Shown piece after piece: positions 41,671-64,000 of a stretch of DNA of 64,000 bases (within the stretch, counting starts at the first letter, position 1; every line of letters begins with the position of its first letter). Made by a program: the position numbers and the translations under genes. The notes beneath the pieces are model-generated. The model was not told the origin of the DNA, did no database searches, and worked only from the letters and a program-made list of their open reading frames with translations. The DNA comes from Lachnospira sp. (lineage in GTDB: Bacteria > Bacillota > Clostridia > Lachnospirales > Lachnospiraceae), in assembly GCA_050874305.1 (NCBI GenBank), contig JBNMKL010000006.1, forward strand, positions 1,651 to 65,650, written 5' to 3'.

Positions 41671-41696
41671 TTTGTGTATGCAATATGGAGGATAAG

Positions 41697-42941: not shown

Positions 42942-42965
42942 AAGCATTTTTTAGGGGAGATAGTT

Positions 42966-43994: not shown

Positions 43995-44004
43995 GAGTAG
44001 TGAA

Positions 44005-45141: not shown

Positions 45142-45143
45142 TC

Positions 45144-46730: not shown

Positions 46731-46747
46731 AACAGGTGGAGGTCGTT

Positions 46748-47170: not shown

Positions 47171-47193
47171 TTACGCAGAGTTGAGGATTAGGT

Positions 47194-48270
47194 ATGAGAA
47201 TAATTCAGGTGTTATCAACTATAGCTAATGGTGATGCTGTAAGCAATGATGCAATAGCATTTGATAAGGTCATCAAAGAGATGGGATATTCGACAGGCGT
47301 ATATGCAGAGAGTATCGTGTCGAATGTTGAGCGCGGTGTTGCCAAGCCATTAGAGAAAATTGGAGAATTGAAAGAATCGGACATAATAATGTATCATTTT
47401 TCGACAGGAACGAAGCTTAATTATGATATAGCAGAATTCCCATGCAGAAAGATTCTTGTATATCATAATGTTACACCACCTGAATTTTTCAGGGGTAATG
47501 ATGACAGATTTGCTGACATATGTGAGTATGGTCTGGAGGGAGCTAAGTATCTTGCTGATAAGGTGGATTACTGTCTTGCTGTGTCAGAATTTAACAAGCA
47601 GGACTTGGTTAACATGGGATATAAGTGCAGGATAGATGTTCTTCCAATTGTAATACCTATGGACGATTATCATAAGAAGCCATCAAGGGAGTTTATGATA
47701 GACTATGGCAGTGATAACCGCACAAATGTGTTATTCACAGGAAGAATTGCACCTAACAAGAAACAGGAGAATGTAATAGCGGCATTTTACTATTACAGAA
47801 AGCTGTACAATAATAAGGCAAGACTTATACTTGCTGGTTCATACCGCGCAGAAGACCCATATTACTTAAGACTTGTGGATTATGTTACAAGGCTTGGAAT
47901 ACAGGATGATGTTGTGTTTACAGGACATATCAAGTTCAATGATATAATTGCCGCATATAAAGTGGCAGATGTGTTCTTATGCATGAGTGAGCATGAGGGA
48001 TTCTGTGTGCCGGTAGTTGAGGCCATGATGTTTCAGGTTCCAGTTGTGGCAAGGGCTGTGGCGGCAGTTCCAGAGACAATGAATTATAAGGGAATGTTGT
48101 TGGACAGCAGCGACCCTATAGTAGCGGCAGGATGCATTGATAAAGTTATAACAGATTCACATTTAAGAAAAACACTTGTGGAACTTGGCAATGCGAGAGT
48201 TAAAGATTTCCAGTATGAAAGAATTGCAGAGCAGTTAAAGAGATATATTACTGAATTTGTGCAAAGGTGA
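47194..48270 (+). CDS. GT4 glycosyltransferase
   Basis: GDAVSN, FTGRIAPNKKQE, MSEHEGFCVPVVEAM. Confidence 0.9.
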   Translation: MRIIQVLSTIANGDAVSNDAIAFDKVIKEMGYSTGVYAESIVSNVERGVAKPLEKIGELKESDIIMYHFSTGTKLNYDIAEFPCRKILVYHNVTPPEFFRGNDDRFADICEYGLEGAKYLADKVDYCLAVSEFNKQDLVNMGYKCRIDVLPIVIPMDDYHKKPSREFMIDYGSDNRTNVLFTGRIAPNKKQENVIAAFYYYRKLYNNKARLILAGSYRAEDPYYLRLVDYVTRLGIQDDVVFTGHIKFNDIIAAYKVADVFLCMSEHEGFCVPVVEAMMFQVPVVARAVAAVPETMNYKGMLLDSSDPIVAAGCIDKVITDSHLRKTLVELGNARVKDFQYERIAEQLKRYITEFVQR

Positions 48271-48276
48271 TAGCGT

Positions 48277-49455
48277 ATGAAAAAGATAGGATTTGTCATT
48301 CCGTGGTATCACAAGGATATCAGGGGTGGAGCAGAGCTTGAGCTTAAAGGAATAGTTACACAGCTTCACAAAAGAGGCGTGGAGTTAGAGATTCTTACGA
48401 CATGTGTCAAAGAATTTTCGGCTGACTGGACAGAGAATTATTTCAAGGAAGGCGTTGAGATAGTTGAGGGGATTCCAGTAAGAAGATTCAAGGTCAGAAA
48501 AGGCAACATGAAGGAATTTCATGCAATCAATGCCAGACTGATGCGTGGCGAGAGCATATCAATTGATGAAGAGCAGACATTTTTGCATGAGATGGTAAAC
48601 AGCCAGGACTTGTATGACTATATCAAGAACCACAGTGAGGAATACCACAAATTTGTCTATATCCCTTACATGTTCGGGCCAACATATTATGGAATCAAGG
48701 CGTGTCCGTTCAAATCAGTGCTTATATCATGTCTTCATGAGGAGTGTTATGCGTACTTCCGTTCATTCAGGGACGCATATGCCAATATGGCAGGAATTAT
48801 ATATCTGTCAAAACCGGAGCAGGAGATTGCAAGAAGATTATGGAAGTTGTCCAAGGTAAAAGAGACGGTTATGGGAGCTGGTGTCGATACAGGATTTGAG
48901 TATGATGCTGACAGATTCCGCAAGAAATATGATATAGATTATCCGTATATTTTGTATGCAGGAAGAAAAGATGAGGGCAAGAATATCTACACTCTTATTA
49001 AGTATTTCTGCGAATATAAGAAGCGCAATCCAAACCGTGATAAGTTAAAGCTTATAATGATTGGCGGCGGTGATGTCACAATTCCAGAGGAATTTAAGAA
49101 TGATATCATAGATATGGGATTCCTTGATATGCAGGATAAGTTTGATGCGTATGCAGGTGCGGAGCTTCTGTGCCAGCCATCACTGCATGAGAGCTTCTCG
49201 CTTGTTATTATGGAGAGCTGGCTATGTGAAAGACCGGTGCTTGTCCATGAGGGCTGTGCAGTGACAACTAATTTTGCCAGAGAGTCTAATGCGGGATTGT
49301 ATTTCAGGGATTATTTCCAGTTTGAGGGCTGTGTTGATTACATTCTTGATAATGAATCAATAGCACATCAGATGGGACTTAATGGACGAAAGTATGTACT
49401 TGATAACTTCACATGGGATATTGTGATTGATAAATTTATGAAAGCGATTGGATAA
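48277..49455 (+). CDS. GT4 glycosyltransferase
   Basis: GGAE, YAGRKDEGK, QPSLHESFSLVIMESW. Confidence 0.9.
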   Translation: MKKIGFVIPWYHKDIRGGAELELKGIVTQLHKRGVELEILTTCVKEFSADWTENYFKEGVEIVEGIPVRRFKVRKGNMKEFHAINARLMRGESISIDEEQTFLHEMVNSQDLYDYIKNHSEEYHKFVYIPYMFGPTYYGIKACPFKSVLISCLHEECYAYFRSFRDAYANMAGIIYLSKPEQEIARRLWKLSKVKETVMGAGVDTGFEYDADRFRKKYDIDYPYILYAGRKDEGKNIYTLIKYFCEYKKRNPNRDKLKLIMIGGGDVTIPEEFKNDIIDMGFLDMQDKFDAYAGAELLCQPSLHESFSLVIMESWLCERPVLVHEGCAVTTNFARESNAGLYFRDYFQFEGCVDYILDNESIAHQMGLNGRKYVLDNFTWDIVIDKFMKAIG

Positions 49456-49459
49456 GAAT

Positions 49460-50653
49460 ATGAAGAAGAAAATTGCTATTATTAACCAGAGATATGGACT
49501 TGAAGTAAATGGTGGTTCAGAGCTTTACTCAAGACAGATTGCAGAGAGACTTATTGCCAAGTACGATGTGGAAGTGTTAACTTCATGTGCTGTTGAATAT
49601 GTCAAATGGTCTAACTATTACAAAGAGGGCGTTGAGACAATCAACGGCGTAACAGTAAGAAGATTTAAGACAGTTCATGAGAGAATTCCTAAGATATTCT
49701 CAGCACTTGATTCATATATGCTCTCTAACCCGGATGCAGATGTTGAGACATCTGATAAATGGATAGAGAATATGGGACCATATTGCCCAGAGCTTGTTGA
49801 ATATGTAGACGAGCATCAGGATGAGTATGAGGCGATTATTGTAGTCACATACCTTTATTATACTGCTGTTAAGAGCATAGTAAGAATTAAGGATAAGGCT
49901 ATATTTATCCCTACAGCACATCAGGAGCCATTCATACATTTTGATATGTATAAGAAGGTGTTCGGGGCAGCAGATGCCTTTGTATTCCTCACTGATGAGG
50001 AGAAAGACCTTGTACATGCAATCTTCCACAACGAAGATGTTCCATATGAGGTTATGGGTGTCGGCGTAGATGTGCCAGCACAGGTGGACAGTGAGCGTTT
50101 CAAGAAGAAATATAATCTTGATGAGTATATTATATATGTAGGACGAATTGATGAGGGTAAGGACTGTCCAAGACTTTTCAAGTATTTCCTTGAGTATAAG
50201 AAGAGAAATAAGAATAATTTAAAGCTTGTTCTTATGGGAAAGGCTGTGTGTGATATCCCTAAGAGTCCTGACATTATAAGTCTTGGATTTGTGAGTGATG
50301 AGGATAAGTTTGATGGAATCAAGGGCGCAAAAGCGCTTATACTTCCATCTAAATTTGAGAGCCTTTCAATATCAGTTCTTGAGGCAATGACACTCTCGAT
50401 TCCTGTTATTGTTAATGGTATATGTGATGTATTAAAGGGACACTGTGTTAAAAGCAATGGTGGTCTTTATTACAAGAATTATTTTGAATTCGAAGGATGT
50501 GTTAATTATATGCTTGAACATCCAGAGGAATACGAGATGCTTTGTGCTAATGCACGAAAATATGTTGAAGACTACTTCCAGTGGGACGATATCATGAAGA
50601 AATTTGACAGAATTATTGAGAGAGTGGGAAATTCATCGCATGACAAAGATTGA
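49460..50653 (+). CDS. GT4 glycosyltransferase (paralog of 48277-49455)
   Basis: GGSE, YVGRIDEGK, LPSKFESLSISVLEAM. Confidence 0.9.
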   Translation: MKKKIAIINQRYGLEVNGGSELYSRQIAERLIAKYDVEVLTSCAVEYVKWSNYYKEGVETINGVTVRRFKTVHERIPKIFSALDSYMLSNPDADVETSDKWIENMGPYCPELVEYVDEHQDEYEAIIVVTYLYYTAVKSIVRIKDKAIFIPTAHQEPFIHFDMYKKVFGAADAFVFLTDEEKDLVHAIFHNEDVPYEVMGVGVDVPAQVDSERFKKKYNLDEYIIYVGRIDEGKDCPRLFKYFLEYKKRNKNNLKLVLMGKAVCDIPKSPDIISLGFVSDEDKFDGIKGAKALILPSKFESLSISVLEAMTLSIPVIVNGICDVLKGHCVKSNGGLYYKNYFEFEGCVNYMLEHPEEYEMLCANARKYVEDYFQWDDIMKKFDRIIERVGNSSHDKD

Positions 50654-52439
50654 TTATAAGAAATATATAATGTGGGCGGCAATTGCAGTATTATATGTGT
50701 TGTGCTTTAAGATAGTTATACAGAGTGGATATATGTTTGATGACATGTGGACATATATAGACAAGGGTGTAGCCATAAGCAATGATACAAGTGTAACACA
50801 GATGGTATTAGAGAGCATACACAGATGGGCTTCGTCGTATGGAAGAATACTTATATTTTCATTTTACTGCGAGTTTGCATTATGTTATCTGCCTCTTGTT
50901 GTATACAAGGGATTGATAGTTGCCGCCATGTTTCTTGATGGATTAGTTCTCGCAGGCATTATTAAAGAACTTACAGGCTCTAAGAGGTTATCATATCTTA
51001 CAGTTATTATATTTCCGGCAGTGCTGTCAATGAGAGCAACGTATTACACAGGAGTATATGGATTTCATGGGCTGGTACAGTTATGTCTGCTGCTTGTGCT
51101 CAGTGCAGTATATTGTTACATAAGATATCGTAAGACGGAAAAGACAGCGTATCAGGTGGCAAGCTGTGTTTTCTGGTTTATGGCACTTGGAATGTATGAG
51201 GTGTCATATGTTTTGTGTGTATGCTTTATAGTTGCTCTTATATGTATTGATGGATGGGATTATGTGAAAAATAATTTCTGGAAATCAATTAAGACAGGAC
51301 TTCCACAGATAATAATAATGATTTTCTGGGTGGTTGCCAATGTTATAGCAAGAATGCTTGCAACTGGCGATTATGATGGAGCTACCCCAAGTTTTTCAAT
51401 AAGTAAGATAATAATTACATTTATTAAACAGTGTTCAGGTGCACTTGGATTCGGTGCTGCACTGGCTGATTGGAAAAATCAGGAGCCGGGATTCTGGAAA
51501 GAATATATATCTGAGTATGTAGGAATTATACAGATATTGACATATGTGCTGGTGTTTGCAGCTTTAATATATGTATTACTAAGATTAAAAGATGTATCGG
51601 TTAATAAGCTTTCGTCAATGTTCTGGATGGGTGCACTTCTTGTTGTGATGCCATCGCTGCTTATAAGTGTGTCTGTCAAGTATCAGAAGGAAGTTGACTG
51701 GTTTCAGGGATACATTCCATCATACTTCGGAAGCTGGGGGTTTGCCCTGATAGCTGCAACGGCGGTTGTTATGATTGGAAAGAAAATTGTTAATTCTAAA
51801 GCATTTATATGCTTTAATGTTGCGGCGGCACTTGTATTTACAGGAATATTCGCATTTGACAATATTGTTGGTGCTTATTCGGTTGAAGATGTCAATATGT
51901 TCTATCAGAATGATGTTGACACAATGCTTGACAGCATAGATTCGGGTATGTTTGATGCTATAGGAGAGGATGAATATTTTCTTGATACATCATATTCAAC
52001 ATACACACTTGATGGAGATTATACCAACAGGGCGTACACAACGTGGCTTGGAAGGAAATGCAAGGCGCGTGGCTGGGATGATATATACGCAGATAAAGGC
52101 AATACAGCAGCATTAAATGATGAATACACCAGAATGAAGAATAAGGGATTTAAGGTCGTTAATCATCTCGCCAAATGGTATGTTGTTATGGCAGATTGCA
52201 ATAATCTGGAATTAAAACTTGGAAATGAAGGATATGAGTACAAGGCGTATGTATCAGGAATGGATATGTTTGTTTATGATTATTCCCCAGATACATTTAC
52301 ATGCAAAGATATCAATGGCGGCAGAATAAGAGTTAATCTGTCAGATGGAAATGTTGTTAGGACAGGCCGGTATGGCAGTGTATATCATTTTGATTTTTCA
52401 AATGATATTGATATTAGTTCTATTGTTATAGGTGAGTAA
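50640..52439 (+). CDS. Multi-pass membrane protein, GT-C-like
   Basis: N-terminal TM followed by FDD acidic loop, ~11 TMs, soluble C-terminal domain. Confidence 0.55.
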   Translation: MTKIDYKKYIMWAAIAVLYVLCFKIVIQSGYMFDDMWTYIDKGVAISNDTSVTQMVLESIHRWASSYGRILIFSFYCEFALCYLPLVVYKGLIVAAMFLDGLVLAGIIKELTGSKRLSYLTVIIFPAVLSMRATYYTGVYGFHGLVQLCLLLVLSAVYCYIRYRKTEKTAYQVASCVFWFMALGMYEVSYVLCVCFIVALICIDGWDYVKNNFWKSIKTGLPQIIIMIFWVVANVIARMLATGDYDGATPSFSISKIIITFIKQCSGALGFGAALADWKNQEPGFWKEYISEYVGIIQILTYVLVFAALIYVLLRLKDVSVNKLSSMFWMGALLVVMPSLLISVSVKYQKEVDWFQGYIPSYFGSWGFALIAATAVVMIGKKIVNSKAFICFNVAAALVFTGIFAFDNIVGAYSVEDVNMFYQNDVDTMLDSIDSGMFDAIGEDEYFLDTSYSTYTLDGDYTNRAYTTWLGRKCKARGWDDIYADKGNTAALNDEYTRMKNKGFKVVNHLAKWYVVMADCNNLELKLGNEGYEYKAYVSGMDMFVYDYSPDTFTCKDINGGRIRVNLSDGNVVRTGRYGSVYHFDFSNDIDISSIVIGE

Positions 52440-52453
52440 AGAAAGGGTTGCAT

Positions 52454-54244
52454 ATGAAGGCAGAGTTATCAAAACATTTTAAGAACAGATGGCAGGATTA
52501 CTGCAGCTTTTTACTAATGATAATAATAATCTTTGGAATGATGTATCATCTTATGGGACTAAAGGATTTTGAACTTGATATTCCAATGTCATACTTTGGC
52601 GGTGATGATATGGGAGTTCTTGTTAATGCAAAGCAGTTTACTGAACAGTTCTGGAATATGACAAGTGACAGGCTTGGAGTACCATACACTGTGCAGTATT
52701 ATGATTTTACATCATCAATGATGCACAATGTCGGACTTGCAGTTATGAAGGTATTTGCTGTTATAACAGGTAATGCGGCAGCAGCCATGAATCTTACTTA
52801 TCTGTCTATTTTCTTCATTGCTGGTATAATTTCATATTTTGTTATGAGAAATATAAAGATAAACTGCTGGATAGCAAGCCTTGCATCATCAGTATTTGCA
52901 TTGTCTCCATATATGCTCTATAGAAATATAGGGCATATAGTGCTTGCAGAATGTTATTTTGTGCCATTATCAATTCTTATATGTCTTTGGATATATGAAA
53001 GAGATGATGTGTTAGTACTTGATAAGAATTTCTTCAAGAGAAAGATTAATTATGTTGTACTTTTTTTTACATTCCTTATAGCTAACAATGGTATAGCATA
53101 TTATCCATTCTTTACATGCTTTATATTTATGGTGACAGCAGTTTCCAAGTTTATAAAGACAGGTAAGATAAAGCAGGGACTCCGCGGTGTCATTGCAACA
53201 GTTATGGTATGTTTCTTTGTAGTGTTAAGTATACTGCCAGGTAAGATATATACAATGATTAATGGCACGAATGCAGCGGCGATTGACCGTTCAGGCTTTG
53301 AGCAGGCTGAACTGTATGGATTAAAGATTGCACAGTTGTTCATGCCTGTAAATGGACATGGAATCTATGATAAGTATATTGATATATATAATGAAACAGC
53401 ATTTCTTGTAAATGAGAATTCAACAGCATATCTTGGAATCCTTGGAATGATAGGTTTTATAGCACTTATATTATGTCTTTTTACAAAGAAAGACAGCGCA
53501 TTGTCAAAAAGACTAGGATATCTTTCTGAACTTAATATAACCATGGTTCTGCTTGGAACTATAGGTGGTATTGGGGCGATGTTTGCGTTTTTTGTAAGTC
53601 CTATGTTACGAGGTTATAACAGAATCTCGATATTCATAGAATATGCATCTATTCTTGCTATGGCGGTTCTGCTTGATGCATGGGTAGACAGATTGAAGAA
53701 TAAATGTAAGGCTGCCGCAAAAAATGTTGGAAGACAGATTGTGTTATATGGCGTGTATGCTGTATTTGGTCTCGTGTGCGTATTCAGCATATGGGAGGGT
53801 TGTCCTAATCTTGCAACACCTGATTATGCGACTATCAAGGAAGAATATACAAGTGATGACAATTTTGTGAAGTCTATAGAAAGTTCAGTCCCAGCAGGCT
53901 CGATGATATATCAGCTTCCATATCATGAGTACCCGGAGTATGGTCCAGTCAATGATATGTGGGATTATCATCTGTATGTAGGATATGTTCATTCTGATAC
54001 CCTCAGATGGAGTTATGGCTCAATTAAAGGGCGTTCAGAGGATGCATGGAACAAGAGTGTGTCAGAGATGGATTATGACAATATGGTTTCATATCTAAAA
54101 GAACAGGGATTTGCAGGGATATATGTAGATAAAAGGGCTTATCTGGACGATGAATTCGCAGAATTAAAGAGCGGTTTAGAGAGTGCAGCAAGAGCTTCAT
54201 TTACAAGTAGTGCCAATGGAAATCTTTGGTTTGTAAAGTTCTGA
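52454..54244 (+). CDS. Multi-pass membrane protein, GT-C/YfhO-like
   Basis: GGDD loop after first TM, FALSPY, many TMs, extracellular C-terminal domain (YQLPY, RWSYG). Confidence 0.55.
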   Translation: MKAELSKHFKNRWQDYCSFLLMIIIIFGMMYHLMGLKDFELDIPMSYFGGDDMGVLVNAKQFTEQFWNMTSDRLGVPYTVQYYDFTSSMMHNVGLAVMKVFAVITGNAAAAMNLTYLSIFFIAGIISYFVMRNIKINCWIASLASSVFALSPYMLYRNIGHIVLAECYFVPLSILICLWIYERDDVLVLDKNFFKRKINYVVLFFTFLIANNGIAYYPFFTCFIFMVTAVSKFIKTGKIKQGLRGVIATVMVCFFVVLSILPGKIYTMINGTNAAAIDRSGFEQAELYGLKIAQLFMPVNGHGIYDKYIDIYNETAFLVNENSTAYLGILGMIGFIALILCLFTKKDSALSKRLGYLSELNITMVLLGTIGGIGAMFAFFVSPMLRGYNRISIFIEYASILAMAVLLDAWVDRLKNKCKAAAKNVGRQIVLYGVYAVFGLVCVFSIWEGCPNLATPDYATIKEEYTSDDNFVKSIESSVPAGSMIYQLPYHEYPEYGPVNDMWDYHLYVGYVHSDTLRWSYGSIKGRSEDAWNKSVSEMDYDNMVSYLKEQGFAGIYVDKRAYLDDEFAELKSGLESAARASFTSSANGNLWFVKF

Positions 54245-54252
54245 TAACAGTG

Positions 54253-54281
54253 TTGACACTTATTTGATTTAAGAGTAATAT
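54253..54281 (+). promoter_or_regulatory. Sigma-A promoter upstream of licD
   Basis: TTGACA-17 bp-TAATAT. Confidence 0.55.
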
Positions 54282-54289
54282 ATTTGTGA

Positions 54290-54339
54290 AAAATGTGTGA
54301 AAAATGTTAATGACATGTAAATTTTTCGCACATTTTTTT
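54290..54339 (+). terminator. Terminator-like hairpin between the GT-C gene and licD
   Basis: AAAATGTGTGAAAAAT / ATTTTTCGCACATTTT plus T-run. Confidence 0.6.
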
Positions 54340-54427
54340 ATTGCTTGGATATTTATGATTAATTTATATACAACAGTATGGTTAAAAGGTTTGAAAAGAA
54401 CACAAGATAATTGAGGGGTATGTCAGG

Positions 54428-55249
54428 ATGAACGAGAATTTAAAGAAAGCACAGGATTCTAACAGATACACAATGAGAAAGCTTCATGAGGTGTGTCACA
54501 AGTATGGAATAAGATATTACTATGATTCAGGCGCACTTATTGGTGCAATAAGACATAAGTCATTCATTCCTTGGGATGACGATATTGATGTGGCATTCAC
54601 AAGGGAAGAGTATAACAAGATAATGGCGCTTCCAGCAGAGGTATGGGGCGATGATTTTAAGCTTGTTACAAGCAGACAGCTTACACCAGGTGGATTTCTT
54701 GATGTTGTCACAAGACTTATCAATGTGAGGGATGAAGTGCCATTAAAGACATATGATAAGTGCATTAAGAAGTTAAAACCAGAATTCAAGGATAGAATAG
54801 GAATAGATTTCTTTATTCTTGACAATGCATATGACAGCGCTTTCAAGCAGAAGCTGCTTAGAATGAGACTTACATTCGTGTACGGACTTGCTATGGGACA
54901 TAGAGACTATATTGACCTTTCAGAGTACAGTGGTGTATCTAAGGCTGTTGTCGGTGTGCTTGCAGTTCTCGGTAAGTGTTTCAGCCTTAACTACCTTTAT
55001 AACAGATATGACAAGATAAGCACATCTGTTAAGGGTGAGACTGGCAGATATTTTTACAGCAATTATCCAATCAACCTTATAGGCATTGATGTTAAAAAGG
55101 AATGGTTCAGGGATGTTGTAGAAGTGTCTGTTGATGATGATATGTTTGATGCACCGATAGATTACGATAATGTGCTTAAAGCAGCATATGGCGATTATAT
55201 GCAGCTTCCACCAGTTGAGAAGCAGATTCCGGATCATGTTCTTATATAG
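54428..55249 (+). CDS. licD: LicD-family phosphotransferase
   Basis: YYDSGALIGAIRHKSFIPWDDDIDV, IDFF.LD, YGDYMQLPP. Confidence 0.9.
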   Translation: MNENLKKAQDSNRYTMRKLHEVCHKYGIRYYYDSGALIGAIRHKSFIPWDDDIDVAFTREEYNKIMALPAEVWGDDFKLVTSRQLTPGGFLDVVTRLINVRDEVPLKTYDKCIKKLKPEFKDRIGIDFFILDNAYDSAFKQKLLRMRLTFVYGLAMGHRDYIDLSEYSGVSKAVVGVLAVLGKCFSLNYLYNRYDKISTSVKGETGRYFYSNYPINLIGIDVKKEWFRDVVEVSVDDDMFDAPIDYDNVLKAAYGDYMQLPPVEKQIPDHVLI

Positions 55250-55289
55250 TTTTGATATGGCATGTTAATAACCAGCCATAGGAGAATTT

Positions 55290-56486
55290 ATGAAGTTATT
55301 AGATAAAGTAAAAGGCGTTTCAAGAGACCTTATAGACAGTATGCTTGGACTAATAGCAATGAATGGTGTTATTCAGCTTATACTGTATCCTGGGTTTCAA
55401 AGACATTTAGGAACGGAGAGTTTCGGACAGGTTCTTACTCTCCTGTCAATTATTTCAATTATGGGTTCAACATTCGGAACCGCAGCTAATTATTCAAGAA
55501 TGGTTGCCAAGACCAAGAAGATTGAATGTAAGGGTGATTATAATATATTCCTTCTTATAATCGCTGCGCTGTGTGTTCCAGTATCAATCGCAGGACTTAT
55601 GTGGCTTGGCAATGGTTCGGTGCTTATGTTTGCCGGATTCCTTGTGCTTATGGTTATGACTGTGTTCAGATACTACAGTGATGTTGAATTCAGGTTGAAT
55701 GTCAATTATCGTGGATTCCTCATATATTATATTCTTATATCAGTTGGATATGTTGTGGGAATAGTTATATTCCCAGTTACACATTCGTGGATTATTGCAA
55801 TGCTTATAGGTGAAGCACTTGCAGTTGGTTTCGTATTTTTAAGAGGTTCTTTGTATAAAGGGGCATTTATTAAAAAGTCCGATTATTTCAAAGATAATAT
55901 GAAATCAGTTGTGATTCTGTCGCTCACAGAGCTTATCGCATCGGTCATATTGAATGCGGACAGACTTATGCTTCAGGCGATTGCGGGCGGTGTTGCAGTT
56001 ACCATATTTTATGCGGCAACACTTGTCGGTAAGATGATTTCACTTATATCAATGCCTCTTAATGGTGTTATTATGGGGCATCTTGCAAGATATGACGGCA
56101 AGCTTAGTGGTAATGCATTCCTTAAATTGTGTGCGGCTGTTATAGGCTTTGGAGCAGTGCTTGATGTGTTGTGTGTCGGTGTATCAATAGTGTTTGTCAT
56201 GATTATGTACCCGGATATATATGCAGATGTAAAGCCATATCTGTGGATTGCAAATGCTGGACAGATATATTATTTCCTGTCTAATACACTGACAGTTGTA
56301 CTGCTTAGATTTACAGATGAGAAATATCAGTTATACATCCATATAGTTTATATGATTGTGTTTATTATATTTGCAGTTCCTATGACATTCATATGGAAGA
56401 TATGGGGAATGGCGTGGGCATTGCTTATAGTGAACCTTATCAAGATAATAGCAATTATGGTAGTTGGAAAGATGAAGCTGGAGTAG
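55290..56486 (+). CDS. Wzx/MATE-like oligosaccharide flippase
   Basis: ~12 TM segments; LNADRLML..IAG..AVTIFY..A pattern typical of polysaccharide transporters. Confidence 0.6.
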   Translation: MKLLDKVKGVSRDLIDSMLGLIAMNGVIQLILYPGFQRHLGTESFGQVLTLLSIISIMGSTFGTAANYSRMVAKTKKIECKGDYNIFLLIIAALCVPVSIAGLMWLGNGSVLMFAGFLVLMVMTVFRYYSDVEFRLNVNYRGFLIYYILISVGYVVGIVIFPVTHSWIIAMLIGEALAVGFVFLRGSLYKGAFIKKSDYFKDNMKSVVILSLTELIASVILNADRLMLQAIAGGVAVTIFYAATLVGKMISLISMPLNGVIMGHLARYDGKLSGNAFLKLCAAVIGFGAVLDVLCVGVSIVFVMIMYPDIYADVKPYLWIANAGQIYYFLSNTLTVVLLRFTDEKYQLYIHIVYMIVFIIFAVPMTFIWKIWGMAWALLIVNLIKIIAIMVVGKMKLE

Positions 56487-56506
56487 ACAAAGGAGGATTA
56501 TTTATT

Positions 56507-58339
56507 ATGCAGGGACTTATATTAGCAGCCGGAATGGGCAAAAGATTAAAGAAGTTAACAAGTGGCAATACCAAATGTATGGTTAAGGTTAATGGTGTGA
56601 CTATGATAGAGAGGTCACTCCGTATTCTTGATAAGAAGCATCTTTCAAGAATAGTTATAGTCGTAGGCTATAAGGGACAGAACCTTATAGATTATATTGA
56701 GACACTCAATATTAACACACCTATAACATATGTTAATAACCCAATATATGATAAGACTAACAACATATATTCACTTGCACTTGCCAAGGATTATCTGTGC
56801 TCAGAGGATACACTGCTTCTTGAGTCAGACCTTGTGTTTGAAGAGAGCGTTATAGATGAACTTCTTGACGATGAACGTCCTAATCTTGCCCTTGTTGATA
56901 AGTTCGAGAGCTGGATGGACGGAACATGCCTTAAAATTGATGAGGATGACTGTATTAGTGATTTCATTCCGGGCAAGTACCTTAAATTCAGTGAAAAAGA
57001 AAATTATTACAAGACAGTTAATATATATAAGTTCAGTGCAAAGTTCTCAGCTAATACATATGTGCCATTCCTTACAGCATATGAGAAGGCAATGGGCGAG
57101 AATGAGTATTATGAGTCAGTTATCAAGCTTATAGCAATGCTTGAGACTAAGGAGATAAGAGCGAAGAGACTTAATGGTGAGACATGGTATGAGATAGATA
57201 ATATTCAGGATCTGAATATTGCTGAGTCGTTATTTGCAACTTCACAGAAGGAGCATCTTGATAAGATTAACAGACGTTACGGCGGCTTCTGGAGATATCC
57301 TAAGCTTATTGATTTCTGTTATCTTGTCAATCCGTATTATCCACCAGAGAAGATGAAGGAGGAGATGAAGTCCAACTTTGATACGCTTCTCACACAGTAT
57401 CCATCGGGAATGGCTGTCAATTCACTTCTTGCAGCAGGAGCGTTTGGCGTGGACACAGAACACATAATTGTCGGAAATGGTGCGGCAGAGCTTATCAAGG
57501 CGTTGACAGAGCGAATTATCCGTGAGGAAGATGCCAGGATAGCATGTATATATCCAACATTTGAAGAATATCCTAACAGATTTGGAAGAGACAGGGTAAT
57601 ATCATACAAGCCAGAGACAGAGGATTTAAGATACAGCGCAGATGATATTATAAGATTTTACGAGGATAAGAAGTTTACAGCGATTGTACTTATCAATCCG
57701 GATAATCCAAGCGGCAATTATATTCCTTATGATGAGCTGGTTAAGCTCATCAACTGGGCAAAGGAAAAGCAGAGTAAGATAATTATTGACGAAAGTTTTG
57801 TTGATTTCGTAGAGATGAGTGATGATGCAGAGATAGCAGATGTTTCGCTTATCAAAGATGAAGTGCTTGATATGTATAGTGGTTTATATGTTGTCAAGAG
57901 TATCTCTAAGTCATATGGTGTGCCGGGAGCGAGACTTGGTGTACTTGCAAGCTCTGATGGGGAGCTGATAGCTGACATGAAAAAAGATGTGGCTATATGG
58001 AATATCAATTCATTTGGTGAGTTCTTTTTACAGATTAAAGAAAAGTATGATAAAGATTATAAGAACGCATTGAAAGCATTTAGAAAGAGCAGACGTGAAT
58101 TCATTGAGAAGTTACAGAATGTATCTTACCTTCACCCATATGAGACACAGGCTAACTATGTTATGTGCAGAGTTGATGGAATGACAGCAGAGGAGCTGTG
58201 CTGTAAGATGCTTGATAAAAAATTTATCATAAAAAATCTTACACATAAGGTCGGAAATGGTAAAGAATACGTAAGATTAGCTGTGAGAGATGAAAATGAC
58301 AATAATGCATTGATTGATGCGTTAAATGAATTAGCATAA
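56507..58339 (+). CDS. Fusion: LicC-like NTP transferase plus class I/II PLP enzyme (CobD/HisC-like)
   Basis: LILAAGMGKRL, TKCM, TNNIYSL, ESD, WYEIDN; then GNGAAELI, PTFEEY, INPDNPSG, IIDESF, SISKSYGVPGARLG (PLP Lys). Confidence 0.85.
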   Translation: MQGLILAAGMGKRLKKLTSGNTKCMVKVNGVTMIERSLRILDKKHLSRIVIVVGYKGQNLIDYIETLNINTPITYVNNPIYDKTNNIYSLALAKDYLCSEDTLLLESDLVFEESVIDELLDDERPNLALVDKFESWMDGTCLKIDEDDCISDFIPGKYLKFSEKENYYKTVNIYKFSAKFSANTYVPFLTAYEKAMGENEYYESVIKLIAMLETKEIRAKRLNGETWYEIDNIQDLNIAESLFATSQKEHLDKINRRYGGFWRYPKLIDFCYLVNPYYPPEKMKEEMKSNFDTLLTQYPSGMAVNSLLAAGAFGVDTEHIIVGNGAAELIKALTERIIREEDARIACIYPTFEEYPNRFGRDRVISYKPETEDLRYSADDIIRFYEDKKFTAIVLINPDNPSGNYIPYDELVKLINWAKEKQSKIIIDESFVDFVEMSDDAEIADVSLIKDEVLDMYSGLYVVKSISKSYGVPGARLGVLASSDGELIADMKKDVAIWNINSFGEFFLQIKEKYDKDYKNALKAFRKSRREFIEKLQNVSYLHPYETQANYVMCRVDGMTAEELCCKMLDKKFIIKNLTHKVGNGKEYVRLAVRDENDNNALIDALNELA

Positions 58340-58366
58340 TACAAGCAAGATAATGGAGGAGTAACA

Positions 58367-60037
58367 ATGTCCTTATCTAAGAGTGAATTTAATATACTTA
58401 ATGAGAAAAGAGTAGGTGGCAGTATCAGCGCAGACGAGCTTGAACAGTTAAAGCCATACAAGGTTGACAATGCAATAATTATGGCGGCTGGAATGTCAAG
58501 CAGATTCGCACCTCTTTCGTATGAGAAACCAAAGGGACTTCTTAATGTCAAGGGCGAGATTCTTATTGAGAGGCAGATACGGCAGTTAAAAGAGGCTGGA
58601 ATTACAGATATAACAGTTGTTGTCGGATATATGAAGGAGAAGTTCTTTTATCTTGATGACAAATTCGGCGTTAAGATTGTGGTTAATGAGGATTACTACA
58701 GATACAACAATACTTCAACACTTATAAGAGTTCTTGATAAGCTGTCTAACACATATATTTGTTCAAGCGACAATTATTTTGTGGATAATGTATTTGAGCC
58801 ATATGTATATCGTGGATATTATTCTGCGGTATATGCAGATGGAGAGACTGATGAATATTGTTTAAGTTTTGACGATGATGACAGAATTAATGGTGTGTCA
58901 GTAGGTGGTTCAGATTCCTGGTATATGCTTGGACATGTGTATTATGACAGAAAGTTCAGTGATAAGTTCAAAGCCATACTTGAAAGAGAGTACGAGAAAG
59001 CAGACACTAAGGAACATCTGTGGGAAGACTTATATATGAAGCATATGGATGAGCTTGACCTTTATGTAAGAAAGTATGATGCTGGAAAAGTGCTTGAGTT
59101 CGATTCGCTTGATGAGTTAAGAGCGTTTGACGAAGAATATATCAACAATGCTGATTCAGCGATACTTAAGAATATATGTGATATACTTCACTGTGAGATG
59201 AAGCATATTGTTAACATTAAGGCAATCAAGGCAGGTCTTACTAATACGTCATTCCAGTTTGAGGTTGATGGCAAGGGTTATGTCTACAGACATCCCGGTG
59301 TTGGAACATCTAAGTATATTAATAGAAAGAGCGAAGCATTCTCGATGGATGTAGCGGCTAAGCTTGGGCTTGATGACACATTTATATATATGGATGCAGA
59401 GCATGGGTATAAGATATCACGTTTCATAGATAATGCGAGAGAGCTTGATTATGACAATGCCAAGGAAGTCAGCATGGCACTTGATATGATAAGAAAGCTT
59501 CACAATGAGAGAATTGTGTCTGAATATGATTTTGGAATATGGGATAAGACAGAGGAATTCATTGAGAAGTTAAATGATACTGGTAAATCTGACTTTGATG
59601 AATTTGGCGAGCTTCATACGAAGATGAAAAAGCTTAAAGATTGTATAATGAGTGATTCCAAGGCAGATAAATGTCTGTGCCATAATGACTGTTATTCACC
59701 TAATTTCCTGCTTGATGGGAATGATAAAATGTATCTTATCGACTGGGAGTATTCAGGTAATGATGACCCGGCAAGTGATATAGGAACATTCATATGCTGT
59801 TCTACATATTCATATGATGAGGCGGTTGCAGTTATCAAGGAGTATCTTGAATGTGAGCCTGACAATGAGACATTAGCTCATTATGTCGGATATGTAGCTA
59901 TAGCATCATATTACTGGTATGTATGGGCACTATATCAGGAGACAAGAGGTAATTCGGTAGGAGAATGGCTGTATATGTGGTATAAGAACAGCAAATTATA
60001 CTGCGAAAAGGCAGAAGAACTCTACAATAAACGCTAA
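58367..60037 (+). CDS. Fusion: LicC-like cytidylyltransferase plus LicA-like choline/ethanolamine kinase
   Basis: AIIMAAGMSSRF.P, PKGLL, SSDNY; then GLTNTSF, VYRHPG, CHND, LIDWEYSG. Confidence 0.88.
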   Translation: MSLSKSEFNILNEKRVGGSISADELEQLKPYKVDNAIIMAAGMSSRFAPLSYEKPKGLLNVKGEILIERQIRQLKEAGITDITVVVGYMKEKFFYLDDKFGVKIVVNEDYYRYNNTSTLIRVLDKLSNTYICSSDNYFVDNVFEPYVYRGYYSAVYADGETDEYCLSFDDDDRINGVSVGGSDSWYMLGHVYYDRKFSDKFKAILEREYEKADTKEHLWEDLYMKHMDELDLYVRKYDAGKVLEFDSLDELRAFDEEYINNADSAILKNICDILHCEMKHIVNIKAIKAGLTNTSFQFEVDGKGYVYRHPGVGTSKYINRKSEAFSMDVAAKLGLDDTFIYMDAEHGYKISRFIDNARELDYDNAKEVSMALDMIRKLHNERIVSEYDFGIWDKTEEFIEKLNDTGKSDFDEFGELHTKMKKLKDCIMSDSKADKCLCHNDCYSPNFLLDGNDKMYLIDWEYSGNDDPASDIGTFICCSTYSYDEAVAVIKEYLECEPDNETLAHYVGYVAIASYYWYVWALYQETRGNSVGEWLYMWYKNSKLYCEKAEELYNKR

Positions 60038-60056
60038 AGTAAAGGAGAAAGATGAT

Positions 60057-60239
60057 ATGTCACAGGAATCAATTGAAAAAGTTATCTATGACGAGACTAA
60101 GAAACGTCTGGAAATCATGGAAAAAGATGACTATGAATTCCCTAAACAGATTGGCAGAGGCGATGTAATTGCAATTGTCGGTGCTGTTGCTGTAAGCCTT
60201 GTGCTTATTATACTATGTATGACGGGGGTAATTGTGTAG
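60057..60239 (+). CDS. 60-aa membrane protein, probable permease accessory subunit
   Basis: AAGGAG RBS; charged N-terminus (RLEIMEKDDYEFP) plus one C-terminal TM; its stop abuts the permease ATG. Confidence 0.7.
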   Translation: MSQESIEKVIYDETKKRLEIMEKDDYEFPKQIGRGDVIAIVGAVAVSLVLIILCMTGVIV

Positions 60240-61679
60240 ATGGCTTCTTCAAGAAATGCGGATTATATCCGTCAGGAGACAATAACAGGAGTTGTGCCTA
60301 TGCTTAAAAGCGACAGGCAGTATTCATTCTGGGATCTGTTCCTGTCAACAAGTGGATTCGCGATAGCAACATGGTGTTATACACAGGGTGCATATGCTGC
60401 ACAGTATTTGTCATTTAAGCAGATGATAATTAATATATTCTGCTTTAACATCATTTTTGTATTGATTGAATGTCTTCCTGTATTATTCGCAGTAAGATAT
60501 GGAATTGACTTATGGATATGGTTAAGGTCGGTGCTTGGCATGAAGGGTGTTGCTATTCTTGCAACGGTGATAAGTCTTGCCAACTTCGGATGGTATGCGG
60601 TCGATTCCCAATTATTTGCATCTTCGATGATTAATCTGTTTGGATATTTCGGAATCACGCTGAATGCATCAATATGGAAACCAGTTCTCGGTGTGTTATG
60701 TGTATTGCTGGGAACATTTATTGCACTTGGCGGTCCTGATGTTATCAAGTGGACAAGCCGAATCCTTGTAACAGCACTGCTTTTTGTAGGTATTGTAGTA
60801 GTAGGATTATGCTTCACAGCAGTTCCTCTCTCAGATATTATGGCTGTACAGCCAGATATAAGCAGCTTTGACAACAATCCTCTTCTTGCGTTCATGTCAT
60901 CAGCAGAGGGTAATGTGGCATTTGCATTCTCATGGTCAACACAGGCACTTGTTATGCCAAGACTTTGTAAGGATGAAAGAAAAGGTTACTGGGCAACTTC
61001 TTTATCATATGGAATAGTTGCTCCATTCTTCGTAGCAGCGGGCGGTGTTATGGCACTTGCCATGTTCGTAAAATGTGGTTACTATGAGAGTGACCCAACA
61101 GTTATGCTTGCCACATTAGGTGGCCCTGTATTCTCACTTTTAAGTCTTCTTATGGTTGCATTTGCTAACATAGGAACTCAGGGAAGTGGTGCATATGTTA
61201 ACTGTATGATTGTAAAGAGCGGACTTCCTAATATCAGCTATAAACTGCTTGTATGGATTTCATGTGTGTATGTAAGCATACTTACAGTATGGGGATGGGT
61301 AATGGATCATTTCTCATCATTCATATCACTTGCGGCGTACCTTCAGGGGCCAATTATAGGTATGATTGTTGTGGACTATCTTATTGTAAAGAAGCTTAAG
61401 ATATCACTTAAATCAGCATATTTCATGGAAGGTCATGATTCATATAAGTTTACTAATGGTGTTAATCTTGTAGGTGTCGGAGTGCTTATAATTTCATTTG
61501 TGACAGCTATGCTGTTTGTATACAATCCACTTACGGCGGCAGTTAAGAGCCCTATATTCCTTGTGACAACGGGAAGTGGTTTCACAGCTATATTTGGTGG
61601 ATTATTATACTGGATTGCAAGCCTTACTCCATTAAGAAAATATATGTTAAGAGACAGAGATGACCTTGACATTGTATAA
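60240..61679 (+). CDS. NCS1 / purine-cytosine permease family transporter
   Basis: ~12 TMs; RYGID..I.LRSVLGMKG, NFGWYAV, GPIIGMIVVDYLI, GVN..G. Confidence 0.75.
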   Translation: MASSRNADYIRQETITGVVPMLKSDRQYSFWDLFLSTSGFAIATWCYTQGAYAAQYLSFKQMIINIFCFNIIFVLIECLPVLFAVRYGIDLWIWLRSVLGMKGVAILATVISLANFGWYAVDSQLFASSMINLFGYFGITLNASIWKPVLGVLCVLLGTFIALGGPDVIKWTSRILVTALLFVGIVVVGLCFTAVPLSDIMAVQPDISSFDNNPLLAFMSSAEGNVAFAFSWSTQALVMPRLCKDERKGYWATSLSYGIVAPFFVAAGGVMALAMFVKCGYYESDPTVMLATLGGPVFSLLSLLMVAFANIGTQGSGAYVNCMIVKSGLPNISYKLLVWISCVYVSILTVWGWVMDHFSSFISLAAYLQGPIIGMIVVDYLIVKKLKISLKSAYFMEGHDSYKFTNGVNLVGVGVLIISFVTAMLFVYNPLTAAVKSPIFLVTTGSGFTAIFGGLLYWIASLTPLRKYMLRDRDDLDIV

Positions 61680-61698
61680 AAAAACTATTAAATTGTAG

Positions 61699-61749
61699 AA
61701 AAAGACCATCATAGATGTTATATTAATGTGCATCTATGATGGTCTTTTT
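61699..61749 (+). terminator. Terminator of the lic-like operon
   Basis: 19-bp perfect inverted repeat AAAAAGACCATCATAGATG / CATCTATGATGGTCTTTTT. Confidence 0.8.
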
Positions 61750-61777
61750 GTAAATAATAGAATACATATAATTAAGT

Positions 61778-63862
61778 ATGGTTGAGGAAGCTGGCTTGGA
61801 AAATAAGAAAAATAACAAAAATGGTACTTATGAGAAGAAACAGAGACTTCTGTTAAAGATGGAACTTATATTAGGTTATCTGTTAGCGGTTACATTATGG
61901 ACTCTTCTTTCGTGGGGATATTATGAAGAATACCAGAAGAATGGCCTGTTTATAGTTGTTTTTGTTTTGTTTACAGTATTTGCAGCTGTATATGGCAGTC
62001 AATTTAAGAACATAAGGAAAATTAATGAGCAGCTTGTAGCAGTGTTCATACATCCGCTGGTACTTTCGATGGCGATTATGCTGTCTGCCAAGAATAACAT
62101 TAATTATGATGGAAGCCTTATATATGTTGTATTTTCATTACTTCCATTTTCGTTTTATCTGTTATGGTGTGCGGCAATATTATTTGTCAATAAACAGACG
62201 GATATTGCTTCCTGGGTTGATAAGAATAAATATGTCCTTCTGGTGATAACAGCGGCGATTCTTTTAAGGCTTCCATATATAAGCATGATGCAGAGATGGG
62301 ATTCTGGTGAGTACTACTGGAGATTCAGCCAGGCTGTACAGGATTTTACATTTACTAATTTCACGGAGTATATGAAATTGTTCTGTCTGTGTAACCATCC
62401 GACAATGATGTTCAGCCTTATATATCTTCCGGGTGAGCTGTTGTTCCCAGAAAAGATTATAGGTGTGTCAATAATAAGCTATATATTTACAGCGATTGCA
62501 TTGTGGTGTATGTACCGCATAATTTTAAGATGCGTCAAAGGAACGAGTGAGAAGAGTGCAGCGATATATACAGCTCTGATCTCGTTCGCACCATTGTTCT
62601 ATGGAACGACAACATATTTTAATCCGGACTACGCGATGGCATGTTTCTTTGTCATAACACTGTATGCGTTTATCTATAATAAGCCTGTTGTGGCAGGTGT
62701 TGCCAGCCTTATGTGCTTCCAGACTAAGGAGACTGGTATAGTTATCGTGTTCGGTCTGGTTGTAGGAACATTTATAAGATATATATGCAGTGGAAGAACT
62801 AAGGATAAAAGCGTTATCGTAAGGATTGCAATGGACGGATGCCTGTATACAACGCTTATATCAACAGTGTTACAGCTTGTATACATGAAGACGATTGGTG
62901 GTGTGTCTAACTGGACACAGTATGGAGAGGAACCGGCAGGTCTTGTGTGGGACAACAATGGAACGAATTGCCTTGGCTTTAACGTTCCATATATAATTAC
63001 AAAGTTAAAGCAGCAGTTTGTGCTTAATTTTAACTGGATGTTTACGTTATTTATAATTCTTGGAATTATTGTTCTTGTAATATATTGTGCCAGGGATAAG
63101 CGCAATAAAGAAAAGAATGAGTATATCCATTGCATGATAAGTGCGTTCGCAGCATTTGTGGCATTCTCATGTCTGTATATAACAGCACCGATGGCAAGAT
63201 ATAATGTTGTGGGTGATGTGCTGCTCTACATGATTGCAATGTATGTAATCGAGAGAGTTGTCAAGGTAACAAGGCTGAGAAAAAAAGTAATGCCTATAAG
63301 AGTGTCACAGGTGATAATAGGGATTCTTGTACTGATTGAGTGCTATGTAACAATAGATCCATTTACTATATTGGGATTTAAAATGCTTGATGCTGGTGGT
63401 CCTGTAATATGTTATACAGGCAATAAAAATATTGCAGATGAAGATATGTTTTATGGAGACTACCTTGTATACAACACACAGTATATGTATATAGATAAAG
63501 CCTATGATTATATACTTAAAAAGACTGGTTACGATACAAGCTGGGACATTATAATTCCTACATCTAATGGTAATTTTATAAATGGTAATATGTACCGTCT
63601 TAACTGGGATGAAGTAAAAAGAAAAAGAGTGTTCTATACGAATCTCAATACAGCTTCTATGAATGATTATAAGCTGGTAGAACGCCTTCATATTGATGAA
63701 CGTGGTCTGGCTGATAAAGCTGTCCTTATAATCAATCCTTATTATCGTGGAATTGACCAGCAGGAAATGCTTGATCAAACATTAAACTACTATACATGTG
63801 TTGACCAGGGCGCATACAGAAGCCTGCAGGGAAATATATACTATTATGTGTTGGAGAAATAG
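61778..63862 (+). CDS. GT-C (ArnT/PMT/GT39-like) membrane glycosyltransferase
   Basis: Many TMs; RWDSGEY acidic loop, NHPT, NPDY, TKETG, ARY motifs. Confidence 0.65.
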   Translation: MVEEAGLENKKNNKNGTYEKKQRLLLKMELILGYLLAVTLWTLLSWGYYEEYQKNGLFIVVFVLFTVFAAVYGSQFKNIRKINEQLVAVFIHPLVLSMAIMLSAKNNINYDGSLIYVVFSLLPFSFYLLWCAAILFVNKQTDIASWVDKNKYVLLVITAAILLRLPYISMMQRWDSGEYYWRFSQAVQDFTFTNFTEYMKLFCLCNHPTMMFSLIYLPGELLFPEKIIGVSIISYIFTAIALWCMYRIILRCVKGTSEKSAAIYTALISFAPLFYGTTTYFNPDYAMACFFVITLYAFIYNKPVVAGVASLMCFQTKETGIVIVFGLVVGTFIRYICSGRTKDKSVIVRIAMDGCLYTTLISTVLQLVYMKTIGGVSNWTQYGEEPAGLVWDNNGTNCLGFNVPYIITKLKQQFVLNFNWMFTLFIILGIIVLVIYCARDKRNKEKNEYIHCMISAFAAFVAFSCLYITAPMARYNVVGDVLLYMIAMYVIERVVKVTRLRKKVMPIRVSQVIIGILVLIECYVTIDPFTILGFKMLDAGGPVICYTGNKNIADEDMFYGDYLVYNTQYMYIDKAYDYILKKTGYDTSWDIIIPTSNGNFINGNMYRLNWDEVKRKRVFYTNLNTASMNDYKLVERLHIDERGLADKAVLIINPYYRGIDQQEMLDQTLNYYTCVDQGAYRSLQGNIYYYVLEK

Positions 63863-64000
63863 GCGGGAGGCTAGGCCGCGGGAGACTGCATGCTATGTAC
63901 ACGCAGGCACGCTCCCGCTAACCTCGGACGCAGCGGACACTAAGGTGCCTGAAATACGGCACCTAAGTGCCGGCGCCCTCAGATTACCTGCTTAGCACAT
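63863..64000. repeat. GC-rich palindromic intergenic element, cut by the window end
   Basis: Starts at the stop codon; GCGGGAG twice (63863, 63878) with complement CTCCCGC (63912-63918); hairpin CACTAAGGTGCC (63938-63949) / GGCACCTAAGTG (63958-63969). Confidence 0.55.

Follow-up and report, generated by a model that had tools for sequence, protein, structure and literature searches.

A 64,000-nt stretch of Lachnospira sp. (assembly GCA_050874305.1, contig JBNMKL010000006.1, positions 1,651 to 65,650; hereafter the window) carries a gene at 56507-58339 in which a LicC-like nucleotidyltransferase is fused to a pyridoxal 5'-phosphate (PLP) enzyme. From its domain architecture, conserved residues, position in the tree and gene-context statistics, the 610-aa product is predicted, with a probability of roughly 0.6, to be a bifunctional, kinase-independent cytidine diphosphate (CDP)-ethanolamine synthase. 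The C-terminal PLP domain would decarboxylate O-phospho-L-serine (phosphoserine) to ethanolamine phosphate, and the N-terminal LicC/PntC-type domain would condense this with cytidine triphosphate (CTP) to CDP-ethanolamine (net: phosphoserine + CTP -> CDP-ethanolamine + CO2 + pyrophosphate). The adjacent LicD would then move phosphoethanolamine onto a lipid-linked glycan at the cytoplasmic face, and a TacF-like flippase would export the decorated unit. A neighbouring LicC-LicA fusion and NCS1 permease would act as an accessory salvage route and may supply a second, probably bulkier donor (CDP-choline or the derivative of a similar imported amine) to the same LicD. Phosphoserine is an intermediate of serine biosynthesis made by SerC. 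SerC was present in the genome (513 bits), and phosphoserine is therefore available.

The fusion gene and its product

The stop-free frame and its two domains were delimited as follows.

56507-58339, + strand: fusion gene, stop-free frame, 610 aa
56507..57226, + strand: N-terminal cytidylyltransferase domain, aa 1-240 (PF12804 and PF00483)
57269..58339, + strand: C-terminal PLP domain of predicted serine-phosphate-decarboxylase type, aa 255-610 (PF00155)

The ATG at 56507 has a Shine-Dalgarno sequence, AAAGGAGG, 8-9 nt 5' of the start, and the stop of the upstream gene is at 56486; a longer frame opening at 56393 overlaps that gene. Pfam matches were NTP_transf_3 (PF12804, aa 3-122, 42.5 bits against a cut-off of 27), PF00483 (30.3 bits, cut-off 21.2) and Aminotran_1_2 (PF00155, aa 305-606, 89.7 bits, cut-off 19.7). 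The PLP lysine is K468, within VVKSISKSYG. An earlier note on this DNA had described a 610-aa open reading frame (ORF) joining a LicC-like nucleotidyltransferase to a class I/II PLP domain with an intact SISK lysine; Pfam, the translation and K468 all agree with that description.

Full-length relatives of the fusion were found in at least 540 species genomes, mostly of Lachnospiraceae, Oscillospiraceae, Ruminococcus, Butyrivibrio and Hungatella, and formed 512 clusters at 50% identity (E <= 1e-30). Conservation was scored over 99 diverse family representatives (30-58% identity), among which the catalytic residues of both domains were 90-100% conserved. The AlphaFold2 model was confident (predicted local distance difference test, pLDDT, 88.4; predicted template modelling score, pTM, 0.85). 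Because of this spread, the conserved catalytic residues and the confident model, the fusion is not a chance ORF. In structural comparison of the model, the two-domain chain matched PntC-AEPT best and the PLP domain SMUL_1544. The NCBI name for the family is only 'aminotransferase class I/II-fold PLP-dependent enzyme'.

The PLP domain

Among solved structures, the PLP domain matched 6OUX best (158-160 bits, 31% identity); 3FTB scored 120 bits, the Salmonella CobD structure 78-79 bits and HisC structures at most 75 bits. 6OUX is SMUL_1544, the serine-O-phosphate decarboxylase of norcobamide synthesis in Sulfurospirillum, an identity given by the PDB title and by the source name attached to P0272, whose sequence is identical. 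With Foldseek, the template modelling score (TM) of the PLP domain was 0.79-0.85 against 6oux and about 0.82 against CobD.

A capsule locus of Campylobacter jejuni has the order glycosyltransferase/ATP-grasp gene (Cj1438), 367-aa PLP enzyme, 390-aa PLP enzyme and HAD phosphatase (Cj1435). NCBI names the cluster of the 390-aa protein 'L-serine phosphate decarboxylase'; because of the NCBI names and the gene order Cj1438-Cj1437-Cj1436-Cj1435, the 390-aa protein was taken as Cj1436 and the 367-aa protein as Cj1437. PMC11800397 assigns phosphoserine decarboxylation to Cj1436 and transamination of dihydroxyacetone phosphate (DHAP) to serinol phosphate to Cj1437. The fusion PLP domain matched Cj1436 with 132 bits (28% identity across the whole domain) and Cj1437 with 40 bits (19% identity).

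A maximum-likelihood tree was computed from the PLP domains of 23-25 diverse fusions, 18-19 SMUL_1544/Cj1436-like proteins, Cj1437, three HisC and three CobD. The fusion domains and the SMUL_1544/Cj1436 family formed a single clade with 100/100 support. All three CobD, the genome's own among them, fell outside this clade, and Cj1437 grouped with the three HisC in a transaminase clade (support 100/98).

Signature residues gave the same division. The motif at the PLP-binding Asp was DE[AS]F in every decarboxylase examined and DEAY in every transaminase examined; in the fusion family the motif is DESF, its last position being F in 92% and Y in 2% of members, and the window protein has F431. YPS, DESF and the equivalents of G471 and E505 were conserved to at least 90% in both the fusion family and the phosphoserine decarboxylase clade, whereas CobD and HisC differ, CobD carrying YPD and DEA where the fusion carries YPS and DES. 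The fusion retains K468, D428, N400, R476 and R590; the Schiff-base lysine (K468), the Asp to the pyridine nitrogen (D428) and the Arg to the PLP phosphate (R476) that mark the class I/II fold are all present. SMUL_1544 (Sulfurospirillum multivorans) and Cj1436 share 28-31% identity with the PLP domain, together with DESF, YPS, the lysine, R476 and R590. They differ in being stand-alone proteins of about 390 aa that lead to no CDP-activated donor: the SMUL_1544 product enters norcobamide, and that of Cj1436 becomes an amide-linked ethanolamine on glucuronate by way of an ATP-grasp ligase and a HAD phosphatase.

Three products had been proposed for the fusion in the earlier note, namely ethanolamine phosphate, aminopropanol phosphate and serinol phosphate. 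Placement in the phosphoserine decarboxylase clade clearly favours the first, and the distant match to Cj1437 speaks against serinol phosphate; aminopropanol phosphate is weighed below.

The stand-alone SMUL_1544/Cj1436-like family returned thousands of matches in homologue searches; its named members were mostly from Bacteroidota and Campylobacterota, and most are called HisC. In the two loci examined, stand-alone members sit among polysaccharide genes: in Pedobacter yulinensis (L086, 6001-7206) with an ATP-grasp gene, and in Aliarcobacter butzleri (L087, 6001-7173) with a HAD phosphatase and CapK-like genes and with uronic-acid genes nearby. This arrangement is the amide-linked ethanolamine logic of C. 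jejuni and not that of cobamide synthesis.

The cytidylyltransferase domain

The best match of the N-terminal domain among solved structures was the PntC of Tde1415 (6pd1, 60.9 bits), followed by pneumococcal LicC (1jyk, 52 bits). The cytidylyltransferase signature is defined as GXG(T/S)RX4-8PK (PMC6697681), and the fusion carries it as AAGMGKRL...NTK (G9-x-G11-x-R13...K23), with R13 and K23 each 95% conserved and G9 and G11 within 95-99%. D108, E229 and D231 align with the LicC metal ligands D107 and E216/D218 and were 97-99% conserved. In Tde-PntC, E104 and E196 contact the primary amine of aminoethylphosphonate, whereas LicC has the smaller D105 and D192 at those positions, which leaves room for choline (Rice et al., PMC6697681). 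E106 and E203 of the fusion occupy the PntC E104/E196 columns, and both are Glu in 97% of representatives. The neighbouring LicC-LicA transferase differs from the fusion in having a LicC-like pocket (SSDNY...LWED), and the locus therefore appears to hold two transferases built for different head groups.

PntC-AEPT (Tde1415 of Treponema denticola, PDB 6PD1/6PD2) is like the fusion in joining a LicC-like cytidylyltransferase to a PLP enzyme, in serving a surface amine head group and in the Glu/Glu pair that contacts the amine. 6pd2 was the top two-domain structural match of the fusion model (E 5.8e-29), at a whole-chain TM of 0.35 and a root-mean-square deviation of 21 A. It differs in its PLP domain, which is a class V aminoethylphosphonate (AEP) transaminase, in its phosphonate substrate and in its domain arrangement, and only the N-terminal domain of the fusion aligns to 6pd1 by sequence.

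Phylogeny, signature residues and pocket residues lend computational support to the earlier proposal of a fusion that both synthesises a phospho-amino-alcohol de novo and uses CTP to activate it.

Order of the two reactions

FrbH of the FR-900098 pathway (Streptomyces rubellomurinus), compared here by its description, has the same layout as the fusion, with a PF12804 cytidylyltransferase at the N-terminus and a PLP decarboxylase at the C-terminus. It cytidylylates 2-amino-4-phosphonobutyrate first and then decarboxylates the cytidine monophosphate (CMP) conjugate. This substrate is the phosphonate isostere of phosphoserine, and the FrbH product is the CMP-linked isostere of CDP-ethanolamine. 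FrbH differs in its C-P substrate and in belonging to an antibiotic pathway dependent on phosphoenolpyruvate (PEP) mutase, whereas the fusion sits in a surface glycopolymer locus with LicD.

Since FrbH, the sole enzyme of this layout to have been characterised, cytidylylates first, two step orders come into question. In the fusion, CTP and phosphoserine may likewise give CDP-serine, which would then be decarboxylated to the same CDP-ethanolamine. Decarboxylation probably comes before cytidylylation, however, because of the kinship to enzymes acting on free phosphoserine and because of reciprocal domain decay. The PLP lysine has been lost in about 9 of the 99 representatives with the transferase site intact, and three show the reverse. 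In some lineages, then, either half can do without the other, as would be expected if phosphoserine and ethanolamine phosphate are free, diffusible intermediates.

The surrounding glycopolymer locus

The window from 30 to 64 kb is one glycopolymer locus. It encodes a DegT aminotransferase, a small Bac_transf initiating transferase, a Polysacc_synt_2 dehydratase, about ten glycosyltransferases (nine GT4, one GT2), an MBOAT protein, a PMT_2-like GT-C protein, a Wzm/Wzt ABC exporter whose Wzt bears a Wzt_C domain, and two polytopic membrane proteins without family match. Within it, LicD, the TacF-like flippase, the fusion, the LicC-LicA fusion, a 60-aa ORF and the NCS1 permease follow each other in this order on one strand with gaps of 20-40 nt.

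54428..55249, + strand: LicD-family phosphotransferase, predicted user of the CDP-activated head group (PF04991, 87 bits)
55290..56486, + strand: Wzx/TacF-like polytopic flippase (Polysacc_synt 27.8 bits, just under the cut-off; about 12 hydrophobic segments)
58367..60037, + strand: LicC-LicA fusion, predicted salvage route (NTP_transf_3, PF12804, aa 36-126; Choline_kinase, PF01633, aa 284-488)
60240..61679, + strand: NCS1-family permease, presumed salvage importer (PF02133, 55.9 bits; 12 hydrophobic segments)
61701..61749, + strand: 17-bp perfect hairpin with T-run 3' of the permease gene (arms 61701-61717 and 61731-61747)

The 60-aa ORF is single-pass and lies directly upstream of the permease gene. 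The hairpin is likely the end of the LicD-to-NCS1 operon; a terminator/promoter scan over 46-64 kb gave signal at chance level. The LicC-LicA gene is the genome's sole choline-kinase-family gene. In 22 other loci, mostly without choline kinase, a LicD of the same sequence cluster as the window LicD is found 1-3 genes away from the fusion.

A separate LicC-LicA fusion and a single LicD had been reported next to the fusion, and the Pfam matches at 58367-60037 and 54428-55249 bear this out. One LicD was counted in the window; the genome's two others are on a different contig, in a flagellin island (contig C12 of genome G000, 41700-52600, outside the window). This island also has two flagellin genes, a TagD-like cytidylyltransferase fused to a GFO/IDH/MocA oxidoreductase (449 aa) and a 600-aa oxidoreductase/glycerophosphodiester-phosphodiesterase-like protein. 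These genes look like a separate, phospho-linked flagellin decoration system.

The lic systems of pneumococcus and Haemophilus (LicB importer, LicA kinase, LicC, LicD, TacF) resemble the predicted system of the window in the CDP-amino-alcohol, in LicD transfer to a lipid-linked glycan and in the Wzx-type flippase, and are matched further by the true LicC-LicA salvage pair. The canonical systems differ in needing imported choline, whereas the fusion route is predicted to start from a central metabolite without kinase or importer and its pocket is PntC-like.

The Wzt at 41685-42941 carries a Wzt_C carbohydrate-binding domain, and no classical chain terminator (methyltransferase or kinase) was recognisable in the locus. 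A phospho-amine cap added by LicD could be the terminal signal for Wzt_C.

Predicted salvage cassette and sister loci

The closest locus (L007, from an uncultured Eubacterium metagenome-assembled genome) encodes a fusion protein 97% identical to that of the window. By blastn, window 52470-58329 corresponds to L007 5952-11823 at 93% and window 61660-64000 to L007 11820-14181 at 88%; the sequence between them is missing there.

58330..61659: cassette of LicC-LicA, small ORF and NCS1 permease, 3.3 kb, absent from L007 (blastn)

ATGA stands at both cassette junctions, once within the final codons of the fusion gene and once within those of the permease gene. In L007, the same hairpin as in the window lies directly 3' of the fusion gene, that is, after whichever gene ends the operon. 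The cassette had no foreign base-composition signature. In L001 (71% identity), the two membrane proteins, fusion, LicD, flippase and GT-C protein are kept and no salvage genes are present. The flippase next to LicD and the fusion is conserved (98% in L007, 84% in L001). Since L007 and L001 are without LicCA-NCS1, what is conserved as a module is LicD, flippase and fusion, with the salvage cassette as an accessory at strain level.

The earlier note had cast the fusion as a second route to an activated amino-alcohol beside LicC-LicA. Two routes are indeed indicated, but 'second' does not fit the fusion, which is the core, as LicCA-NCS1 is missing from L007 and from the next closest locus. The companion proposal, that LicC-LicA salvages an imported amine and that the locus thus has two donors, gains support from the computational comparison.

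Window and L007 show a second cassette swap, of window 50642-52469 against L007 1816-5921. The polytopic membrane protein at 50604-52439 of the window (no family match) is replaced in L007 by a YidC-fused TagF-like phosphotransferase and an LtaS-like sulfatase. A different salvage cassette stands beside the fusion in Lachnospira eligens (L055, 2093-11812). It comprises an APC-family amino-acid permease, a MarR-fused nucleotidyltransferase, an amidohydrolase and a LicCA-like protein, and is followed by YidC-TagF and the fusion.

Distribution and gene neighbourhoods of the family

The fusion is patchily spread; it was found in 9 of 121 genomes of the same taxonomic family and was absent from a congener. 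A gene-neighbourhood survey of this architecture, as the earlier note had suggested, was run on 79 related loci (L001-L078, L080) plus the window, with a 10-kb radius. LicD recurred within 10 kb of the fusion in 26 of them, usually 1-3 genes off, and choline kinase was rare (5 of the related loci). A TagF-like transferase and a YidC-fused LtaS-like sulfatase were within the same distance in 22. Cultivable carriers of the fusion include Lachnospira eligens (L055), Butyrivibrio sp. AC2005/MB2005 (L004/L005) and Hungatella effluvii (L011). These BLAST-cluster counts are low for divergent transferases, as several loci scored 'none' have sulfatase-like or TagF-like neighbours, or adjoin flagellin genes.

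Four family representatives (P0123, P0125, P0233, P0267) have three domains, nucleotidyltransferase, PLP domain and S-adenosylmethionine (SAM)-methyltransferase. The best solved relatives of the P0125 methyltransferase are plant phospho(methyl)ethanolamine N-methyltransferases (5wp5, 3.5e-11; 5wp4, 1.7e-9). The PLP lysine of P0125 is lost (SVTHG); that of P0123 is intact, but its methyltransferase domain had generic matches only. The tri-domain relatives suggest that some species make a methylated (choline-type) head group de novo. Other representatives are fusions of nucleotidyltransferase with TagF-like domain and of TagF-like domain with PLP domain. These Rosetta-stone fusions, like the gene neighbourhoods, speak for the CDP-ethanolamine reading.

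Alternative readings

Several observations weigh against phosphoserine as substrate and CDP-ethanolamine as the end of the route. In the tree, the characterised phosphoserine decarboxylases form their own 100/100 subclade, to which the fusions are sister rather than nested within it. The fusion N-terminal arm, [YFH]258-G259-G260-[YF]-W262-[RK], replaces A-G-S-H-S-P-S of the characterised enzymes, and K576 stands where SMUL_1544, Cj1436 and CobD carry Arg. The sister placement, the altered arm and K576 mean that the substrate could differ (CDP-serine, threonine phosphate or another phospho-amino acid). Neither LicC nor PntC has an equivalent of K169, T170, N172 and Y174, which are invariant in the transferase domain of the fusion family; a role of these residues in carboxylate binding is conceivable and would speak for the FrbH order. 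About 28 of the 79 related loci, among them L017, L020, L023, L030 and L036, have a gene of the opine-dehydrogenase or ornithine-cyclodeaminase families directly beside the fusion (octopine/nopaline-dehydrogenase family in 21 loci, ornithine-cyclodeaminase family in 7); none is present in the window. The head group is therefore elaborated further in some lineages but not in the window, and the partners suggest N-carboxyalkylation to an opine-type head group in those lineages. In the NCBIfam search, no curated model reached its cut-off on the fusion: the CobD model TIGR01140 gave 152.6 bits (cut-off 290.55) and the HisC model TIGR01141 149.3 bits (cut-off 276.55). Since these scores fail to separate CobD from HisC, phylogeny and signature residues were used instead. 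Finally, use of the product by the window LicD, and acceptance of two donors by that LicD, are suggested by adjacency.

A CDP-serine intermediate could account for K169/T170/N172/Y174, the altered N-terminal arm and K576. An extended form of the CDP-ethanolamine reading has a small but real chance: CDP-L-serine would be made first and then decarboxylated, a single LicD would take both donors, phosphoethanolamine and phosphocholine caps would switch with diet, and Wzt_C may read the cap. To our knowledge, CDP-L-serine is not a known nucleotide-activated amino acid of bacterial glycopolymer synthesis.

It is unlikely that the substrate is L-threonine-O-3-phosphate, which the PLP domain would convert, as CobD does, to (R)-1-amino-2-propanol phosphate for activation to CDP-aminopropanol and use by LicD. 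CobD (Salmonella enterica, PDB 1LC5) is a clear homologue by the bit score and TM given above and shares fold, reaction type and the K/D/N/R residues with the PLP domain. A cobamide pathway is present in the genome, so threonine phosphate is presumably made, and E354 and an xGG N-terminal arm are common to the fusion and CobD but not found in SMUL_1544. On the other hand, the PLP domain groups with the phosphoserine decarboxylases at 100/100, apart from three CobD, and has their YPS and DES in place of YPD and DEA; it scores below the TIGR01140 cut-off, and the methyltransferase fused in P0125 resembles those acting on phosphoethanolamine.

Another phospho-amino acid or a CDP-linked substrate with a non-ethanolamine outcome is doubtful too; CDP-serine might be the end product, for example, with the PLP domain epimerising or eliminating. 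The fusion clade does stand apart from the characterised enzymes, with invariants of its own (G259, G260, W262, K576 and K169/T170/N172/Y174), and the opine-dehydrogenase partners elsewhere point to variable head-group chemistry. All residues of the CobD-type reaction are conserved, however, the decarboxylase Phe replaces the transaminase Tyr, and the closest enzyme of the same architecture, FrbH, is a decarboxylase.

Transamination of DHAP to serinol phosphate as in Cj1437, with CDP-serinol as product, is very improbable. TagF-like transferases normally use CDP-glycerol, and serinol is the 2-amino analogue of glycerol; their presence beside the fusion in 22 of 79 related loci would suit this product, and HisC-type transaminases are homologous to the PLP domain. 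The low score and identity to Cj1437, its place in the transaminase clade with HisC and the presence of Phe431 where every transaminase examined has Tyr argue against it.

Synthesis of a cobamide (norcobamide) linker instead of surface decoration is more improbable still. The closest solved relative, SMUL_1544, does make the ethanolamine-phosphate linker of norcobamide. The fusion gene is, however, in a glycopolymer operon between flippase and lic genes, a cytidylyltransferase has no role in linker attachment, and the patchy distribution (the 9 of 121 family genomes) is like that of variable surface loci. The cobamide role was rejected on a separate CobD gene in the cob operon (C5:48008-49084), beside CbiB, CobS and CobT. 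The genome also has a true HisC (297 bits); with its own CobD and HisC, it needs the fusion for neither cobamide nor histidine synthesis.

Phosphonate tailoring to CMP-aminoethylphosphonate or CMP-aminopropylphosphonate, as by PntC-AEPT (6pd2, the top two-domain match) or FrbH (identical Pfam architecture), was rejected as next to impossible, since the C-terminal domain is class I/II and not a class V AEP transaminase, the overall TM is 0.35, and PEP mutase (PF13714) was absent from the 99.86%-complete genome in a search that was positive in 11 of 14 control genomes.

Implications

In literature searches, neither a described bacterial enzyme converting phosphoserine to CDP-ethanolamine nor this fusion was found. 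The parts and the chemical logic are known; the phosphate-ester, surface-glycan version is uncharacterised. Surface phosphoethanolamine and phosphocholine influence how antibodies, C-reactive protein, antimicrobial peptides and phages recognise bacteria. Gram-negative bacteria take their phosphoethanolamine from membrane phosphatidylethanolamine, and in lic systems the head group must be imported. If the CDP-ethanolamine reading is true, conversion of cytoplasmic phosphoserine to CDP-ethanolamine without kinase or importer would be a third source of the head group. It would assign a function to a large family of fusions named only for their aminotransferase class I/II fold, as the phosphate-ester counterpart of the phosphonate enzyme FrbH. 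The fusion occurs in more than 500 gut and rumen Firmicutes species, among them Lachnospira, Butyrivibrio, Ruminococcus, Faecalibacterium-like organisms and Hungatella, and the route would explain how these commensals decorate their wall polymers independently of diet.

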